Shown here one piece after another: positions 16,326-63,734 of a DNA stretch of 64,000 nucleotides. The stretch comes from Candidatus Magasanikiibacteriota bacterium (GTDB taxonomy: Bacteria; Patescibacteriota; Patescibacteriia; Magasanikbacterales; 2-02-FULL-50-9b). The position numbers and the translations under genes are program-made. Location of the stretch: positions 46,560 to 110,559 of the forward strand of contig CAITMK010000001.1 of assembly GCA_903893485.1 (NCBI GenBank). The letters are read 5' to 3'. Positions within the stretch are counted from its first letter, which is position 1. Each line of letters opens with the position of its first letter. The notes under the pieces were generated by a model, which was given only the letters and a program-made list of their open reading frames with translations, was not told where the DNA came from and did not search any database.

Positions 16326-17003
16326 TTACTTATCGCGCGCCGTGACGATTGCACGCTTGGCATGCCGCATCACGAATCGCAGGATGTGGCTTTCGTTCGG
16401 ATCAACGAGCGTTACCGCGAGGCCGACAAAGTGTGACAGCCGGCTTTCGATGTGGCACGGTACAAACTCAAACGAAACCGGAACACCGCGCGCAACCGCG
16501 TGCCCCACATACCGAATTCGTCGCTGACTTTCTCCAAGCGCCACCACCTCTGCACCAAGTTCGTACAGATGTGCAATGGCCGCGAATTCCTGTGAGCACG
16601 AAAACGCCCACATATCTTCAATGGGCCAACCATCGAAGGGCGTGATAATGTCGTCACTCATGAGCCCCGAATGGCCAAGTAAGTAATCCTTGCCTGACCA
16701 CGCGTAGGACTTACCGTTTCCATGATGATCGCCGCCCAAAAGCACGATTGCTTTGTAACCGCCTTCGTTGTACAGCTCCACGGCCCGATCGAGCAGCGCC
16801 TTGAATCGATCTTCAATTTCACCATCAGCGCTCACTTCTCGGCCGAGCACAACCAAGTATTTCCAACCAGCAAGCGGTGCGCCGGGCATCTCCCCCAGTT
16901 CTTCCAGTTGATCCAGCCGCCGTTCCAATCGCAGACTGTAAAAAACCCACTGTAAAAAGAAAGGTCCAAATACCACCAGAGCCGCAAATCCAAAATACTG
17001 CAT
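16326..17003 (-). CDS. DUF218/YdcF-like (SanA/ElyC family) protein, GC-rich island B
   Basis: YLVVLGREVSADGE...AIVLLGGDHHGNG fits the DUF218 core. An N-terminal TM helix is present. A strong SD (GAGGAGG) lies 6 nt upstream of the ATG at 17003. The GC content is about 58%. Confidence 0.55.
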   Translation of the reverse strand: MQYFGFAALVVFGPFFLQWVFYSLRLERRLDQLEELGEMPGAPLAGWKYLVVLGREVSADGEIEDRFKALLDRAVELYNEGGYKAIVLLGGDHHGNGKSYAWSGKDYLLGHSGLMSDDIITPFDGWPIEDMWAFSCSQEFAAIAHLYELGAEVVALGESQRRIRYVGHAVARGVPVSFEFVPCHIESRLSHFVGLAVTLVDPNESHILRFVMRHAKRAIVTARDK

Positions 17004-17038
17004 CGTTCGCCTCCTCGCCATTTCGGCAGGTTGCCAGA

Positions 17039-23539: not shown

Positions 23540-24091
23540 CTATTCCTCGATCGGCTCCGTGCCCATGAGAAGCAGGGTGCGGCGCAGCGGCTGCCGACTC
23601 TTCACGTAGCGGTTCAGCAGATCCCAGTGCGACGCGACAAAAGCCCGTGCAAGCCGTCCGTGGCTGAATGCCGCATTGGATTCAGCAAACACGCACGGGT
23701 AATAGGTCTGCCCGTCCTGCTGCCAGGCCGTACCAGGAAACACCAGCACCGTTGAATTGGTGTCGAGCCCCAGTTCGGCGGGCAACTGAGCCCCCGCTTG
23801 AAGATTCGCGAGCAGCTCGATAGCATGTTCGCGACCAGCAGCGCTCGGCGGCATGTCACGCGCAATGCGCTCTTCCAGCTTGCTCTGCGTGTTCCTGCTG
23901 CGCGCAATGCGCGTAGCGCTCAAACGCTGAGGACCGAACGGCCCCGCAACATCCCAAGCCAGACGACGTCCGTCGACTTTCGACTTGAAGATATGCTCCG
24001 CCTCTGCCAAAGCCACCGTTATCAGATATTTTTTCAATGCCGCATTTCCCACAAGGCCCCCCTTTGCCGCGCTGGTTGTAGCGCGGGACAA
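23540..24091 (-). CDS. Hypothetical protein, GC-rich island C
   Basis: About 170-183 aa with no recognisable domain. The ORF-track start is a TTG. The true start is probably the GTG just downstream, 4 nt after a GGGGGG run, because a CCGCGCT/AGCGCGG hairpin sits at the extreme 5' end. Confidence 0.5.
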   Translation of the reverse strand: MSRATTSAAKGGLVGNAALKKYLITVALAEAEHIFKSKVDGRRLAWDVAGPFGPQRLSATRIARSRNTQSKLEERIARDMPPSAAGREHAIELLANLQAGAQLPAELGLDTNSTVLVFPGTAWQQDGQTYYPCVFAESNAAFSHGRLARAFVASHWDLLNRYVKSRQPLRRTLLLMGTEPIEE

Positions 24092-26560: not shown

Positions 26561-27034
26561 TCAAAACGGCGCGGACTTTTCCCCGATGAAATTCATGAGG
26601 TCCTGCCCGATATCGGTCATGTCGGACTCGCTGAATCCAATGAGCCCTTTGGTAAAGCAGTCCTTGCCCGTCGTGTAAAGAAACCTCATCACGAGCGTAC
26701 GACGCTGACCTTCGAGTTCCACTGGGGTCGAGACAGTCAGCCAACACAGGATTTCCTGAATAGCGGTTCCGTAACGCTCAAAGTCGTCGATGGTCACCAC
26801 CTCTTCATTCAGCCTGACGAGCGGATCGAGCGCCCTGAATCCGGCGATGAGCGTCGGGATCATGGGATCATGGATCTCGCGGGGCATGCGAAATGGATTT
26901 GACTTATACTTCCGTTTCGGCGGATTGAGCGTGCGATCGACCATCCGTTGCAACGCTTCACAGGCACATGAAGCCGCATGAATCGCTCGCATATCGAGCG
27001 CAAGTCTAACCCCTACCAAATTTGTAGTACCCAT
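26561..27034 (-). CDS. Hypothetical protein, GC-rich island E
   Basis: 157 aa, MGTTNLVGVRLALDMRAIHAASCACEALQRMVDR... with no recognisable domain. SD GAGGTGA. GC-rich. Confidence 0.55.
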   Translation of the reverse strand: MGTTNLVGVRLALDMRAIHAASCACEALQRMVDRTLNPPKRKYKSNPFRMPREIHDPMIPTLIAGFRALDPLVRLNEEVVTIDDFERYGTAIQEILCWLTVSTPVELEGQRRTLVMRFLYTTGKDCFTKGLIGFSESDMTDIGQDLMNFIGEKSAPF

Positions 27035-28147: not shown

Positions 28148-28438
28148 TTATTTACCAGCTGCAGTTTTGTCTGCACGCTTTGCTTTGCGCGCCTGTTCCT
28201 TTTCCGCTTTAGAGCGAGTTGAAACAGCAGCTGCGGCAATTTTGGTAGCTTTGTCTTGAAACTTCTCGATACGACGAGCAGTGTCAACAAAGTTCTGTTT
28301 ACCCGTGTAAAATGGGTGACATTTGCTGCAAAGTTCAATACGAAGCGCTGGCTGCGTTGAACCAACCTCAAAAGTGTTACCACATGCGCAGGTCACGTTA
28401 GCATTTGGAGTGTAGTTTGGGTGGATGGCCTTTTTCAT
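28148..28438 (-). CDS. rpmE: 50S ribosomal protein L31 with a Lys/Ala-rich C-terminal extension
   Basis: [48 protein letters not shown] matches L31. The start is at the internal Met; the ORF track starts from a TTG. Confidence 0.88.
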
Positions 28439-28531
28439 AGTGAAAGTAGTGTACATTTTAAGCCGGCGGTTGTCAAGAGTAAAAAAACAGACCCACCCCG
28501 CGCAACGTATGTCGCGCAAAGGCAGGTCAAA

Positions 28532-28993
28532 TTACCACGGGTCCTCACCCCGCAGAAGCTTCGCTTTTCGATCATCCCGAGTCCTTTGCTGCCAGTCAAG
28601 CTTTGCTCTCCAGCGTGCCGGGTCAGCGTCCATTCGCTCTGCATACGTCAGCTGCCTCGGCACGTTTCGTTGCAAACGCAGCTCCTTAGAGGAGATGCCG
28701 ATGATGTGTGCAACATGGGCGATTGCGGTCATTTCGTCGGCAATATTTTCAAACTCCTTGTAGATTCTGACAACCGATCCGCCTGCACCACATGCCTGGC
28801 ATAGGTATTGATTTGACCTACGATTCACGCGGAATGAGGCGGTCTTCTCGGCGTGAAACGGGCAGATGAAAACGAGCGCTCGCGCATTTCGCCGCACTGG
28901 CAAATAGCCGAACGATTTGAGTGCCTTTTCAATTGGATATGCCAGAACTCGCCTCATGAGTTCTGGACTGAACATCATGTGACGCTTTGACAT
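28532..28993 (-). CDS. Stand-alone CHC2 zinc-finger protein (DnaG-primase-type Zn-binding domain), GC-rich island F
   Basis: CPFHAEKTASFRVNRRSNQYLCQACGAGG matches the CHC2 primase zinc-finger signature CPFHxEKTPSF...CFGCG. 153 aa. SD GGAG. GC-rich. Proteins of this kind are typical of phage and plasmid replication modules. Confidence 0.65.
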   Translation of the reverse strand: MSKRHMMFSPELMRRVLAYPIEKALKSFGYLPVRRNARALVFICPFHAEKTASFRVNRRSNQYLCQACGAGGSVVRIYKEFENIADEMTAIAHVAHIIGISSKELRLQRNVPRQLTYAERMDADPARWRAKLDWQQRTRDDRKAKLLRGEDPW

Positions 28994-29013
28994 TTTAACT
29001 CCATCGAGTGTGC

Positions 29014-29090
29014 CCGCCGGGTTTGGTGGTGGAATCCCCTTGGAAATGACGGTTCTGCTCTGTCATCGTTGGCCGCCGGCGGGCACGTCC
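29014..29090 (-). promoter_or_regulatory. Structured GC-rich 5' leader of the CHC2 gene: an 11-bp inverted repeat enclosing an inner hairpin
   Basis: GTGCCCGCCGG...(about 50 nt with the inner ATGAC/GTCAT stem)...CCGGCGGGCAC, read directly from the sequence. Confidence 0.4.
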
Positions 29091-29192
29091 TGCTGCCAAA
29101 GCATCAGGTACCAACGAATCGGGGCCAACTGGCCAAAGAGATTAATAAAACGGTACAGTGATAAAGCTGTCTCTGTCAAGCATGCTTAGGAC

Positions 29193-29231
29193 AAAACTAA
29201 ATTGTATTAAAGTGTAATACAATTTAGTTTT
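29193..29231. repeat. Perfect 17-bp AT-rich inverted repeat (AAAACTAAATTGTATTA-aagtg-TAATACAATTTAGTTTT) followed by a T-tract
   Basis: Read directly. It lies between the island F TTGACA and the prmC start. It could be an operator or protein-binding site, or a plus-strand terminator or insulator. Confidence 0.6.
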
Positions 29232-29257
29232 TATTATTTTTGTGCTACCATAACCAC

Positions 29258-30043
29258 ATGAAAATCCGTGAAATTCTAAAAAAATCATCCCCAGACGATG
29301 AATACTTATTACGTTTTGTATTAAAAAAATCTCGTGCAGAATTGTTGCGCGATTTTGGCGCCGAAGTCCGTCAAGCCACACTCACCAAATTTCGTGAGCT
29401 CAAAAAAAAACGTGCCGACGGAATACCAATGCAATACATTGTTGGCGCCGCATGGTTTTACGGATTAGAATTTTTTGTGACGAAAACAGTATTAATCCCC
29501 CGCCCGGAAACTGAAATTTTAGTTGAACGAGCACTGGCAGCGCACGCTGAAATCGTAATCGACATCGGCACGGGCAGTGGTGCAATCGCCGTCTCTCTCG
29601 CTAAAAATTCTCGCTCTAAAATTATTGCCGCAGATATTTCCGAATCCGCTTTAAAAATTGCACACAAAAATTCGCGCCGCCACAAAACAAAAATTAAATT
29701 TTATAAAAGCAATTTGCTCACCACGATTCCCTGGCCTCGAACACAATCCGTGCTCATCGCTGCAAATCTTCCATATCTTTCGAATGCACGCATGAAATCA
29801 CTCACCACCGAAGTTCGCCGTGAGCCACGTCTCGCATTATATGGCGGCCCCGATGGCCTGCAACTATACAAAAAACTTTTCGCACAAATTCGTGCGCGCA
29901 AATCGCCGACCCAAACCGTAACCGTCCTCGCCGAAATCGACCCGGAGCAGAAAAAAAATCTCGCCGCCCTGGTGGGCGACGAGAAGATTTCTTTCTTCAA
30001 GGATCTGTCGGGCGCCGTGCGCCTCGCAGAAATTATTTTTTAG
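29258..30043 (+). CDS. prmC: Release-factor glutamine N5-methyltransferase (PrmC/HemK family)
   Basis: The SAM-binding motif is VIDIGTGSGAIAVSLA. The catalytic motif ANLPY is a variant of NPPY. Pairing with the nearby prfA supports the assignment. Confidence 0.75.
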   Translation: MKIREILKKSSPDDEYLLRFVLKKSRAELLRDFGAEVRQATLTKFRELKKKRADGIPMQYIVGAAWFYGLEFFVTKTVLIPRPETEILVERALAAHAEIVIDIGTGSGAIAVSLAKNSRSKIIAADISESALKIAHKNSRRHKTKIKFYKSNLLTTIPWPRTQSVLIAANLPYLSNARMKSLTTEVRREPRLALYGGPDGLQLYKKLFAQIRARKSPTQTVTVLAEIDPEQKKNLAALVGDEKISFFKDLSGAVRLAEIIF

Positions 30044-30753: not shown

Positions 30754-31098
30754 TTAGTTCAAAAAAGTTTCTTTGGTAATTTCTCCGTGAAGTGAAGCTT
30801 CATGCCACGAGATCACATCGTCGAAATCGACAGCGTCGACTTCTACAAAACGGAGGATATCATCGGACGAAGCGTCGGTAATGAGGCCGAGCGAAGAGAC
30901 ACCATTTGGATTATGCGTGATAAGCGCGGCCACCGAATGTTTGCATTTAGCACACGTAACGTGGACCAAATGTTTGTTGTCTGATTCGTTTAAAACCTTA
31001 ATCTCGAGTGGCTCATACACGGTTTCACACAGGGGACATTGTTGAACGAGTTTCATCCCGTCCTCAGCGTTTGTGCGTTTTTTTCGCTTCGGGGCCAT
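30754..31098 (-). CDS. Small hypothetical protein with a Cys4 zinc-ribbon-like motif
   Basis: 114 aa. CPLC...CAKC pairs, with a basic N-terminus MAPKRKKR. Confidence 0.45.
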   Translation of the reverse strand: MAPKRKKRTNAEDGMKLVQQCPLCETVYEPLEIKVLNESDNKHLVHVTCAKCKHSVAALITHNPNGVSSLGLITDASSDDILRFVEVDAVDFDDVISWHEASLHGEITKETFLN

Positions 31099-35334: not shown

Positions 35335-35901
35335 CTACGTCGCTTCAGCCGAAAAGCCGAACTGCAACGCGGTCTGTTGTTGGTGCCACGGCTTCTTCAC
35401 GTCGTACATGGCAAGCGCTTGATGAAACGCATCGTCCAGCACCTTGTAGATCGGGTGATGAACGCTGCCGCCCACGACGTGCTCCTGCAGGAACTCCATC
35501 TGATCGATCAGCATCTCGGCGCGCAGATGCAAAAGCGCGAACAGGTCGTTGCCGCGAAACTCTGCGAGCTCCAGATACAGCAGATGCATGTACGCGAGGC
35601 CCGTTTTCTCATCCTCTTTCATCCAGCCCCACGCAAATTCCGTGCGCGCGATGACCTGACGGAACTTGGCCGGCACCGTGCACCGCACATACGGCACCGG
35701 CAAACCGGACGCCGTGTCGATGAGGTAGCCCGACGCCAACTTGGGCAGCAGATCCGGCGGGTCCAGCTCCGTGACGAGCAAAAAGCGATCTTGAAAACCG
35801 CCATGCGTGACGAACCGACGCCAGCCCGTGGTAGCGTGCAACCACCAGCGGCCAGGATCCACCACGACTTCAACATCTTGAACCAAATCTTGAGAACTCA
35901 T
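35335..35901 (-). CDS. Hypothetical protein (island G, gene 3 of 3)
   Basis: 188 aa. AGGAG lies 7 nt before the ATG. GC-rich (over 60% in places). No recognisable domain. Confidence 0.6.
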   Translation of the reverse strand: MSSQDLVQDVEVVVDPGRWWLHATTGWRRFVTHGGFQDRFLLVTELDPPDLLPKLASGYLIDTASGLPVPYVRCTVPAKFRQVIARTEFAWGWMKEDEKTGLAYMHLLYLELAEFRGNDLFALLHLRAEMLIDQMEFLQEHVVGGSVHHPIYKVLDDAFHQALAMYDVKKPWHQQQTALQFGFSAEAT

Positions 35902-38387: not shown

Positions 38388-39066
38388 TCACTTCCTGAAC
38401 AAGGCCCGCAGCACGCTCAGCGAAAATTCGAATCGAATCACGCGCAAGTCGCCGTCCGCCAATTCAAGATGTTTCTTCATGGCGCTGTGCGAGGACATGG
38501 TCCGCGCCTGTTCGTAGACCTCAATCGCAGTACCCGGCGGAAACAGATTGATCTGATCGACCGAGGTAACACGCTGCGAAAACGCGGTCGGCGCCTCGCT
38601 GCCCGCTCCCTGCACCTCCACGAAATGCGTGTAGTGCTGACGAACACGTGTCTGACCACCAAACGGTGCCGCAATAACCCCATGCCCCTTTACTGGTAGC
38701 GCAAGCTCATGATACGGGCCGGAAGCGTCGGTAGCACCCGGCCGCAGTTGCTGCCGAAGCACCCAACGATGTTTGCCGCCGTCAACATCAGACCACCAGA
38801 TCACCAGCGTCGCGTCAGCCATGAGGCTGAGCACCGCGCGATCCCCTCTACGAATCGCGATGCCCGCGAGCAGTCCACCGGCGAACGGTGTCATGCACAC
38901 GACACCACTTTCCGGCGTAACGGACATACTTTCGCGACTAAGCCCGACGCTTTTCAGCGCTTGGATTGCAGGCAATGTCACCCGACCATCCAAGCACTCA
39001 AACAGCAGGTCTTTGGGTTTCTTCACAGATACCGGCGGCTCCTCGAGCCGAATGTCTGACTGGCAC
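38388..39066 (-). CDS. Hypothetical protein, GC-rich island H
   Basis: About 225 aa, MCQSDIRLEEPP... AGGAGG lies 6 nt before the ATG. GC-rich. No recognisable domain. Confidence 0.55.
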
Positions 39067-39094
39067 ATGGCCAACCTCCTTCGAAATGTGGTTT

Positions 39095-43062: not shown

Positions 43063-43761
43063 TTAGCGCTGAACCATCGAGATGTTAGAAACTTGGATCG
43101 AAGCATCTTCGGTGTAGAAACCATATTTGCCGTCGGCTGTTAACACGTCCTTTGCAGACATGGTGTACTGCATGGTTTTTTTGCCGTTAATCGTCATGGT
43201 GATCACATTATTCGCTACATCAAGTGTAACGTTATAATTGGTGTTGATCGGAAACATATCTTGGCCAAAGTTTGAGGTATACAAGAAATCTTGCTTGTTA
43301 TTCAAAAGCGATTCACCCATTTCAACACCGTAACCAGCTGGTTTCAAAATAATATATTTGAAAGCGCCGGTATCTTTGTAGCCAAAAACCAACCAACCAA
43401 CTTCCCATGCATTTGGCGCAGATCCGGTACGGAGCTGGCTTACTGTTTTCATGGTGTAATTCAGCTGGAATGGCTGATGAACACTAACGTTACTCACGGT
43501 TAATGCAGAATGGGTTTCGCCAGGCTGCGTTGATGCCATTGGCGCCATTGCAAGCATTTGAGTTGCCGGATTCCATGTAACAGAGCCGTAACCATCAAAA
43601 ATAGTAGTGCCACCCCAATTTGCAGTGCTTGCTTGCACCTGCGTTTGTGCCGGTGTTTTTGTTTTAATTTTTACCTTTGTCTTAGCCAACGCAAAACCCT
43701 GTGGCAAAACTACCACAAAAACCGCTAACATTGCGCCCGCTAAAAGGTTATATTTTTTCAT
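43063..43761 (-). CDS. Secreted hypothetical protein, possibly a jelly-roll/lectin-like fold
   Basis: 232 aa. Signal peptide MKKYNLLAGAMLAVFVVVLPQGFALA, then a beta-rich region. No confident family. Confidence 0.5.
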   Translation of the reverse strand: MKKYNLLAGAMLAVFVVVLPQGFALAKTKVKIKTKTPAQTQVQASTANWGGTTIFDGYGSVTWNPATQMLAMAPMASTQPGETHSALTVSNVSVHQPFQLNYTMKTVSQLRTGSAPNAWEVGWLVFGYKDTGAFKYIILKPAGYGVEMGESLLNNKQDFLYTSNFGQDMFPINTNYNVTLDVANNVITMTINGKKTMQYTMSAKDVLTADGKYGFYTEDASIQVSNISMVQR

Positions 43762-62210: not shown

Positions 62211-63362
62211 TTATGCCGCTTTTTCTTCTGTGTCTTCTGTTTTCTCTGCTTTTTCGGCATGTGTTGATTTTGCTTTTGGTTTTACACCAGGAACGCGAAG
62301 GCCCAAACGGTGCTCTTCTGAATCAATTGATACGATATCAAATTCGTATGTATCGCCGATTTTGAACTGCTTTGCAATGTCTTCGATTGTTTCGTTTGAA
62401 AGTTCAGAAACATGAGCCAAGCCCTGAATTTCTGGATCCAATTCTACGAACAAACCGTAAGGATTGATTTTAACGATTTTACCTTTGACCACCTGGCCAA
62501 CCTTATACTTATCATTAATAGTCTTCCAAGGGTCTGGAGTCAAGCGCTTCATTGAAAGGAAGATCTTTTTTCCGTCGATTTGGATGATTTCAGCCTTTAC
62601 CATGTCACCTAAGCGGACAACGTCCTTTGGATGATCAATGCGCTGCCATGCGAGCTCTGAAATGTGTACCAAGCCTTCAATGCCATCGAATTTAACGAAG
62701 GCGCCGAATGCGGTGATTGCAGAAACTTCGCCTTCTACGGTCATACCAACCTTATATTTGTCTGGTACTACGTTTTTAACTTCGTCTGCAATTGCTTTTT
62801 CAGAAACAATCAATTTTTCTTCTTTTTCGTTCACGTCGATTACCTTAACAGGTAAATCTTGGCCAACAAATTCTTTGAGTTTTTCAAGAATTTTGTTTTT
62901 GTCGCCACCAGCAACACGTGGATAATGATCCCCAGATAACTGAGAAACTGGCAAAAATGCGTCCATGCCGTCTAAATCAACCATGAGACCGCCTTTATTT
63001 GCTTCCTTAATACGAGCCATTACCGTAACGCCTGAGCGACGGAGTTCTTCCAATTTTGTCCAAACGCGGGCGTGGCCTGCGCTGCGGAATGAAAGTTCCA
63101 TTTCGCCGTTTTCGTTTTCAAGTTCGATAACTGTTGCTTCTACCTCTGAACCGTCCTTAAGGTTGCGGTATTCTGAGCTTTCAGCATAAAGTTCTGTGCC
63201 ACGGATCACACCAGTGCGGAGCCCCTCGATATTAATACGCACTTCGTTGCGGCCAACTGATAATACTGTTCCCTTCAAAATGTCGCCTACCTTTGGCACG
63301 TTGCCAAAATGTTCGTCCAGGAGTTTAGCGAAAACGCCCGTTTTTGTTGCTGTGTTAGTCAT
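62211..63362 (-). CDS. rpsA: 30S ribosomal protein S1 (four S1 domains)
   Basis: Repeated S1/OB motifs (GTVLSV...; GMTVEGEVSAITAFGAFVKF; GQVVKGKIVKINPYGLFVEL). The start is taken at MTNTATK; the ORF-track extension to 63539 runs through a terminator hairpin and a promoter. Confidence 0.85.
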   Translation of the reverse strand: MTNTATKTGVFAKLLDEHFGNVPKVGDILKGTVLSVGRNEVRINIEGLRTGVIRGTELYAESSEYRNLKDGSEVEATVIELENENGEMELSFRSAGHARVWTKLEELRRSGVTVMARIKEANKGGLMVDLDGMDAFLPVSQLSGDHYPRVAGGDKNKILEKLKEFVGQDLPVKVIDVNEKEEKLIVSEKAIADEVKNVVPDKYKVGMTVEGEVSAITAFGAFVKFDGIEGLVHISELAWQRIDHPKDVVRLGDMVKAEIIQIDGKKIFLSMKRLTPDPWKTINDKYKVGQVVKGKIVKINPYGLFVELDPEIQGLAHVSELSNETIEDIAKQFKIGDTYEFDIVSIDSEEHRLGLRVPGVKPKAKSTHAEKAEKTEDTEEKAA

Positions 63363-63378
63363 ATGAATTAGTGGATGG

Positions 63379-63407
63379 ATTGTAACAGAGTGAGGCCGGG
63401 GCGTCAA
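63379..63407 (-). promoter_or_regulatory. rpsA promoter (TTGACG-N17-TACAAT)
   Basis: Read on the minus strand, immediately after the island J terminator and 19 nt before the rpsA ATG. Confidence 0.6.
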
Positions 63408-63408
63408 C

Positions 63409-63464
63409 CCCCAAAAATAAAAGTGCGCGGAACCTGTAGACGGTGGTGTCTGCAGGTTCCGCGC
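63409..63464 (-). terminator. Rho-independent terminator for the island J mini-gene
   Basis: On the minus strand, the 17-bp stem GCGCGGAACCTGCAGAC / GUCUACAGGUUCCGCGC (one G-U pair) is followed by ACTTTTATTTTTGGGGG. Confidence 0.8.
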
Positions 63465-63489
63465 GGAGGGCGCGTGAGAGTTGTTCGGC

Positions 63490-63690
63490 TTAGCAGTAAG
63501 CCAAGCCGCGACCGCCGGGGCCGTGCCGCACGCGGTCAATGGCCACAGGATCGATCGGCTGACCAGGCGGCCGGCGATCAGCTGCGCGGAACGGATGCCG
63601 ATTCAGTGCCGCGCGTGCCAGCGGCAAATCAAGCGTCTTCAACTTAGCGCCGAGATAGCTGGGCTGTTGCCCGACTTGATTCTGATTCAT
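63490..63690 (-). CDS. Small hypothetical protein (about 66 aa), GC-rich island J
   Basis: MNQNQVGQQPSYLGAKLKTLDLPLARAALNRHPFRAADRRPPGQPIDPVAIDRVRHGPGGRGLAYC. The ORF is framed by GGAG-N6-ATG, a consensus-like promoter and a strong terminator. GC-rich. Confidence 0.5.
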   Translation of the reverse strand: MNQNQVGQQPSYLGAKLKTLDLPLARAALNRHPFRAADRRPPGQPIDPVAIDRVRHGPGGRGLAYC

Positions 63691-63734
63691 GATCATCTCC
63701 TTCAGCCCAATATTGACGGGCTTGCTTGCGACAC

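Follow-up and report, generated by a model that had tools for sequence, protein, structure and literature searches.

A GC-rich single-gene island encoding a stand-alone primase-type zinc-binding domain in a Candidatus Magasanikiibacteriota bacterium

The gene unit and its product

In the 64-kb stretch of Candidatus Magasanikiibacteriota DNA analyzed in this study (here called the window), a GC-rich island of ~660 bp (~28480-29140, here named island F) is located between rpmE-prfA, which follow downstream on the same strand, and the divergently oriented prmC. Island F is a self-contained unit consisting of a candidate promoter, a leader, a ribosome-binding site, an open reading frame (ORF) and a terminator. 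The features of the unit and the adjoining rpmE promoter, in the direction of reading, are as follows.

29150..29179, minus strand: candidate sigma-70-type promoter, TTGACA-18 nt-TACCGT, with a perfect -35 and a weak -10 box (relaxed hexamer scan)
28994..29140, minus strand: GC-rich (59%) 5' leader of 147 nt, separating the start codon from the candidate promoter (composition, fold)
29010..29086, minus strand: long-range hairpin with perfect 11-nt arms and a 55-nt loop that contains an inner 6-bp hairpin (29045-29067)
28999..29002, minus strand: Shine-Dalgarno sequence GGAG, separated by 5 nt from the ATG at 28993 (sequence reading)
28532..28993, minus strand: ORF of 153 amino acids for a stand-alone DnaG-type zinc-binding-domain protein (ORF translation, Pfam)
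28673..28972, minus strand: complete primase zinc-binding domain, codons 8-107 (Pfam, alignment, AF2/Foldseek)
28862-28864, 28853-28855, 28799-28801 and 28790-28792, minus strand: zinc ligands C44, H47, C65 and C68, respectively (alignment)
28553..28645, minus strand: long, charged C-terminal alpha-helix, codons 117-147, without a recognized family (AF2, pLDDT 86-95)
28481..28528, minus strand: intrinsic terminator directly past the stop codon, with a ~17-bp stem (28490-28528) followed by U7 (RNA fold)
28476-28448, minus strand: rpmE promoter, TTGACA-17-TACACT, immediately past the island F terminator (promoter scan)

The candidate promoter was the better of two candidates obtained in a relaxed minus-strand scan upstream of the ORF (9/12 matches) and did not pass a stricter promoter scan. 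It is located in AT-rich, host-like DNA just beyond the GC-rich block, and the 5' leader has the length given above if this promoter is used. The terminator folds with -28.1 kcal/mol (z=-3.03), and only 2/200 shuffled sequences folded as well.

The N terminus of the encoded protein, here referred to as the CHC2 protein, reads MSKRHMMFSPEL; a database gene call that starts at Met6 (148 amino acids) also exists for this ORF. An earlier note on this DNA, made by reading the sequence, had described a 153-amino-acid protein with a CHC2 zinc-binding signature and no primase catalytic domain, and the profile searches bore out both parts of this description. The motifs quoted there, ICPFHAEKTASF, YLCQACGAGG and ICPFHAEKTASFRVNRRSNQYLCQACGAGGS, are all present, and Pfam family PF01807 (Zn_ribbon_DnaG, CHC2 zinc finger) matches residues 30 to 103 with E=2.8e-14 and 53.1 bits, which is above the gathering cut-off of 24.9 bits. 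No second domain was found by Pfam, and neither Toprim nor DNAG_N or DnaB_bind gave a match. The NCBIfam model TIGR01391 for dnaG is matched with 55 bits, below its cut-off of 283.6 bits, and is covered solely at model positions 23 to 103 of 414; the primase core is thus absent from the CHC2 protein. In the PHROGs collection, the protein matches primase families and a 177-position family of unknown function. A defense-related role was rejected, since the PADLOC matches arise solely through the zinc-binding domain (ZBD) of DRT/RT-DnaG fusions and the locus shows no defense context.

In an alignment of 41 sequences (the CHC2 protein and 40 matches), the four zinc ligands C44, H47, C65 and C68 all fall in invariant columns, as do F46, E49, S53 and G72. 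Two near-invariant glycines are replaced by A37 and A67, and GGS takes the place of the usual GGD motif; judged from the alignment, these substitutions could mean relaxed constraint. An AlphaFold2 (AF2) model built on the same alignment reached a mean pLDDT of 89.9, with about 95 over residues 10 to 100. Its best match in the PDB by Foldseek is 1d0q_A (E=4e-6, target-normalized TM score of 0.80, root mean square deviation of 1.8 Å over 98 columns), followed by the Aquifex DnaG and T4 gp61. The zinc ribbon and helical subdomain of a primase ZBD are accordingly both present in the predicted structure, and the Foldseek matches, like the profiles, reveal no catalytic domain. In the model, the ZBD is followed by a short linker, the charged helix of residues 117 to 147 and a tail ending in GEDPW. 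The C-terminal part thus consists of a single helix for which Pfam and Foldseek yielded no family match and no helicase-binding domain; it is weakly similar to the helix that follows the ZBD in Toprim-less ZBD proteins, e.g., P0014. Having neither a Toprim nor a helicase-binding domain, the CHC2 protein is unable to make primers alone.

As a side observation, the C-terminal GEDPW (28532-28546) combines acidic residues, a proline and a terminal aromatic residue and is reminiscent of the tip of SSB, a likeness that extends over four residues only. The C-terminal tip of SSB, D-I-P-F, docks onto many replication proteins.

Leader structure and genomic setting

The earlier note had also pointed to an 11-bp inverted repeat upstream of the gene that encloses a second hairpin. 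We recovered this arrangement, with the arms GTGCCCGCCGG at 29010-29020 and CCGGCGGGCAC at 29076-29086 and the inner hairpin at 29045-29067. According to block shuffles, ~1.7 inverted-repeat pairs of 11-mers of this type are expected per 64 kb, and the chance of finding one such pair inside the ~250-nt spacer is about 0.007. The repeat is therefore mildly unexpected in this spacer, though not exceptional across all 64 kb. We rejected it as a recurring element: the arms occur at the same spacing in 77 metagenome contigs and two viral contigs, and all of these pairs enclose unrelated GC-rich loops, which indicates chance occurrence in high-GC DNA.

The proposal that the leader is structured received weak support. 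Its 88-nt core has a minimum free energy of -32.5 kcal/mol (z=-2.25; 4/200 shuffles folded as well), and the whole 147 nt fold with z=-1.43. A search of Rfam 15 gave no match at gathering or E-value thresholds; in the region 28400-29300, the best subthreshold match, on the leader, reached 19 bits where 60 are required. The GGAG lies 7 nt downstream of the stem, which terminates at 29010, and is left unpaired; no U-tract was found 3' of the stem. Furthermore, a 48-codon open frame runs through the leader and stops 2 nt short of the ATG of the CHC2 gene; neither a codon-position GC signal nor similarity to ORFs located upstream in analogous loci was detected for this frame. The leader may represent a structured 5' untranslated region or, equally, leftover donor sequence, e.g., the 3' remnant of an upstream gene.

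A second dyad lies further upstream, in the spacer towards prmC. At 29193-29231, 27 nt ahead of the start codon of prmC, we observed a perfect 17-bp palindrome of A and T only (AAAACTAAATTGTATTA / TAATACAATTTAGTTTT) with a 5-nt loop, which folds with -15.7 kcal/mol (z=-4.1), is followed by a T-rich tract on the plus strand and is the strongest dyad in the window. From its sequence and its position in a divergent spacer, it could act either as a terminator or as an operator.

The composition of the CHC2 gene is foreign to its surroundings. Its GC content is 53.0% compared to a window mean of 45.8%, and its GC3 is 0.58 compared to 0.30 to 0.52 in 14 host genes, while the DNA beyond 29140 has a GC content of 29%. 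The gene is hence GC-rich, as had been claimed, but the excess is modest. Profile scans of the genes at 19.3 to 47.9 kb yielded exclusively housekeeping genes (including those for enolase, PGK, GAPDH, tsf, rpsB, L25, FtsW, GyrB, NusG, L11, ThrRS and L1) and ORFans without a family match; phage or plasmid genes were not among them. The att or integrase remnants that the earlier note had suggested looking for did not turn up: profile scans revealed no integrase or transposase within ~10 kb, and the 64-kb window contains no tRNA, Rfam family, repeat family or att-like direct repeat. In addition, tblastn searches with DnaG, DnaB and D5-helicase queries found no partner helicase or primase in the 64-kb window (±28 kb), and none of its frames contains a Toprim-like sequence. 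One weak tblastn match to DnaG at 43072-43455 (E=0.007) was rejected as a primase core; the ORF at this position belongs to no Pfam family.

Comparison with relatives delimits the island on its downstream side. The closest relative, a metagenome-assembled genome (MAG) of Candidatus Magasanikbacteria (L004) whose RF1 is 76% identical, can be aligned from the -10 box of rpmE onward alone; upstream of this box, its sequence is unrelated and contains another ORF. The RF1 identity places the host in the Candidate Phyla Radiation (CPR/Patescibacteria). The order of the neighboring genes also differs between relatives. In the window, prmC (29240-30043) lies upstream of rpmE-prfA in divergent orientation, whereas a more distantly related member of the Magasanikbacteria (L006, 5306-7216) shows the co-directional order rpmE-prfA-prmC, and islands F and E occupy both junctions of this prmC rearrangement. 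Another small ORF, of 114 amino acids (30754-31098, minus strand), was observed between the genes for L25 and FtsW; it gave no match in Pfam, contains two CxxC pairs (CPLCE...CAKCK) and, from its sequence, may encode a small zinc-ribbon protein.

The CHC2 protein is rare. A word-indexed search of 5.8 billion proteins returned the protein itself alone, and an exhaustive HMMER search of 1.84 billion representatives returned the protein itself followed by a best other match of 34% identity (E=1e-15), the remaining matches being generic CHC2 domains of 34 to 45% identity. Among these representatives there is hence no orthologue above 34% identity. Likewise, tblastn against phages and plasmids identified no specific donor and gave primase ZBDs of 27 to 45% identity alone. 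Every contig that carries the CHC2 gene belongs to the same species and has identical DNA, so the intactness of the ORF is uninformative with regard to selection. One ENA contig (L084) matches the window perfectly up to a junction at 28756, in the middle of the CHC2 gene, and then continues into an unrelated fragment (L084 1-128); these 128 nt appear GC-rich by eye and encode a class-II aminoacyl-tRNA synthetase (ProRS-like) motif on the other strand. This contig may be an assembly chimera or a strain variant in which the CHC2 gene is truncated. Another contig (L085) and one further contig end at window position 28833.

Related zinc-binding domains and possible origin

The earlier note had called stand-alone CHC2 proteins typical of phage and other mobile-element replication modules, and PHROG families, matches in BFVD and the gene contexts of related proteins agree with this. 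A profile built from the window protein and five Toprim-less ZBD proteins retrieved CHC2-only proteins, and the gene contexts of seven of them were examined. Three lie beside or near helicase genes: P0024 (229 amino acids) abuts a D5_N/DUF5906 (SF3) helicase gene, the gene for P0154 (297 amino acids) overlaps that for DnaB in a phage-like locus that also contains HNH, RNA ligase and PNKP genes, and P0153 (267 amino acids) is two small ORFs away from DnaB. P0160 (160 amino acids) is encoded by the first half of a dnaG that is split within an rpsU-dnaG-rpoD operon, P0181 and P0193 (208 and 137 amino acids) adjoin rpoD fragments in assemblies where many genes are broken, and P0243 (212 amino acids), from a sample in the accession series of the P0181 and P0193 assemblies, has uninformative neighbors. 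BFVD furthermore contains many phage proteins of 100 to 210 amino acids that consist essentially of a CHC2 ZBD. Many short, apparently stand-alone CHC2 matches turned out to be frameshifted or partial dnaG calls and were excluded as evidence for a stand-alone family. Stand-alone ZBDs are a known feature of mobile-element replication modules, where they normally occur with a helicase partner.

The window protein shares its fold, the C-H-C-C ligands and the motifs CPFHxEKTxSF and CxxCGxGG with the DnaG ZBD (PF01807; 1d0q, Geobacillus/Bacillus stearothermophilus). In DnaG, however, the ZBD is the N terminus of an enzyme of ~600 amino acids with Toprim RNA polymerase and DnaB-binding domains, whereas in the window protein it stands alone with an unrelated helix. 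The identity to any known ZBD is 26 to 45%, and the near-invariant glycines of DnaG correspond to A37 and A67. Likeness is also seen to the Toprim-less ZBD proteins of phages and integrative elements (P0024, P0154, P0153; PHROG 11992 and 360; ORFs of mycobacteriophages and Cutibacterium phages annotated as DNA primase in BFVD). Like the window protein, they are small, of foreign composition and without a catalytic domain, and their ZBD is followed by a helical extension. Their genes, however, are translationally coupled to, or located near, DnaB or D5/SF3 helicase genes in recognizable mobile elements, whereas the window gene encodes a shorter protein (153 compared to 229 to 297 amino acids) and is transcriptionally isolated at rpmE-prmC, with neither a helicase neighbor nor a mobile-element context. 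Split or frameshifted chromosomal dnaG calls (P0160, P0181, P0193) likewise result in short predicted proteins that are chromosomally encoded and contain CHC2 alone, but they are found in an rpsU-dnaG-rpoD neighborhood with the rest of dnaG or rpoD fragments downstream, and in some of the assemblies genes are visibly fragmented. The window ORF, in contrast, has a proper stop codon and a terminator, and no Toprim sequence is present in any frame.

We favor, with a probability of about 0.5, the view that island F is a horizontally acquired monocistronic gene for an orphaned mobile-element ZBD which, if active, acts in trans on a primase/helicase. With no partner helicase beside it, the gene is an orphan. 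A mobile-element origin, as the earlier note had proposed, is plausible from composition and analogy; the foreign composition and the unrelated sequence of L004 upstream of the rpmE -10 box speak for it, but no hallmark of a mobile element was found nearby. The gene would derive from a phage or integrative element, namely from a replication module of the kind that encodes a Toprim-less ZBD beside a DnaB- or D5-type helicase. The protein is presumably expressed, and any activity can be sketched as follows. Via its zinc ribbon, the protein would bind to single-stranded template DNA, and it would act in trans on the primase/helicase complex of the host, thereby influencing at which sites primers are started or whether they are started at all; protein-protein contact would be the role of the C-terminal helix. 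We know of no free ZBD for which trans action comparable to that of full-length DnaG has been shown. The DnaG ZBD reads a template trinucleotide, and a ZBD can cooperate in trans with the RNA polymerase domain of a second primase molecule (Larson et al. 2010, PMC2978363), the latter having been observed between full-length chimeric primases with covalently attached ZBDs and not with a free ZBD.

The main rival of an orphaned ZBD is a silent or functionless relic, that is, a recently acquired and not yet decayed fragment of a mobile-element replication module without a host role, which we consider possible though on balance unlikely. An orphan gene without a helicase or primase partner, a composition that has not drifted towards that of the host, the lack of orthologues and the substitution of conserved glycines would all be expected of such a fragment, and with identical copies throughout, the intact ORF does not speak for selection. 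On the other hand, the ORF is intact with all zinc ligands and a confidently predicted fold, it is preceded by a good Shine-Dalgarno sequence and followed by a strong dedicated terminator, and other GC-rich islands carry canonical TTGACA promoters and terminators of their own, suggesting that such genes are expressed. The following three explanations are less likely still. A small DNA-binding regulator or autoregulator would have its operator in the 11-bp inverted repeat of the leader or in the AT-rich palindrome between rpmE and prmC. In its favor, the CHC2 gene has two dyad symmetries upstream, and zinc ribbons can bind nucleic acid; yet the DnaG ZBD is known as a reader of single-stranded template and not as a binder of duplex operators, a half-site spacing of 55 nt is atypical of operators, and there are no homologous loci in which co-occurrence could be followed. 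We therefore regard a regulator as decidedly improbable.

Even less probability is given to a split host primase, in which the host DnaG would lack a ZBD and the CHC2 gene would supply it as an essential subunit in trans. Cooperation in trans between ZBD and RNA polymerase domains does occur (PMC2978363), and split ZBD/Toprim gene calls exist elsewhere. An essential gene, however, would have orthologues in related genomes, where none exceeds 34% identity, and the composition of the CHC2 gene is foreign; moreover, the split cases adjoin the rest of dnaG or rpoD fragments, some of them in fragmented assemblies, and the window contains none of this. Finally, a single ORF together with a ~77-nt inverted repeat with an imperfect loop superficially resembles an integron-type gene cassette with its attC site. 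This explanation is already contradicted and hardly credible: the repeat is located 5' and not 3' of the ORF, its arms GTGCCCGCCGG/CCGGCGGGCAC lack the core sites RYYYAAC/GTTRRRY, no integrase is present among the profile-scanned genes, and the islands form no array, being set apart by essential genes and having no repeat in common.

Returning to an orphaned ZBD that acts in trans, a more far-reaching version of this reading, which we consider a long shot, is that the free ZBD docks via its C-terminal helix and its acidic-aromatic tail on the host primase/helicase or on an SSB-binding pocket, where it would re-program or block primer initiation, and, more broadly, that at least seven GC-rich single-gene ORFan islands located among core genes of the window, island F included, reflect an undescribed mode of gene capture in CPR bacteria. 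If docking of this kind were true, the CHC2 protein would be a natural primase specificity or anti-primase factor captured by a CPR bacterium with a reduced genome, and any action on the host primosome would make it a natural tool for studying how a ZBD controls primer initiation in trans. By itself, the CHC2 gene matters little, stand-alone CHC2 zinc domains already being abundant in phage, plasmid and metagenome catalogues. Island F is useful as a clean, well-delimited foreign single gene that lies between essential genes of a streamlined CPR genome and has its own expression signals.

Further GC-rich islands in the window

Six further GC-rich single-ORF islands were observed between housekeeping genes, all on the minus strand (16326-17021, 23540-24091, 26561-27034, 35335-35901, 38388-39074 and 63490-63696). 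GC3 is 0.58 to 0.75 in the five that were measured, and the five that were scanned (all except 63490-63696) gave no match in Pfam, PHROG, NCBIfam or PADLOC. The islands 35335-35901 and 38388-39074 are both equipped with a TTGACA-17 promoter and a strong terminator of their own, and 26561-27034 has a TTGACA-17-TACTAT promoter. The latter island (island E) is missing from the syntenic site in a relative (L005), where rpsB follows prfA directly with a gap of 137 nt. The notion of a GC-rich cassette population put forward in the earlier note found no mechanistic support, as the islands have neither sequence nor flanking repeats in common (blastn-short returned chance 11- to 13-mers alone). Taken together, the GC-rich ORFan islands with host-type promoters form a wider pattern that may be more interesting than the CHC2 gene.

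A GC-rich hairpin was furthermore noticed at 63425-63464 (GCGCGGAACCTG...CAGGTTCCGCGC), followed by TTTTATTTTT on the minus strand. It lies directly after a GC-rich ORF of 68 amino acids and upstream of a large ORF (62211-63539). Judged by eye, this ORF and the hairpin appear to repeat the architecture of island F, a foreign ORF followed by its own terminator.
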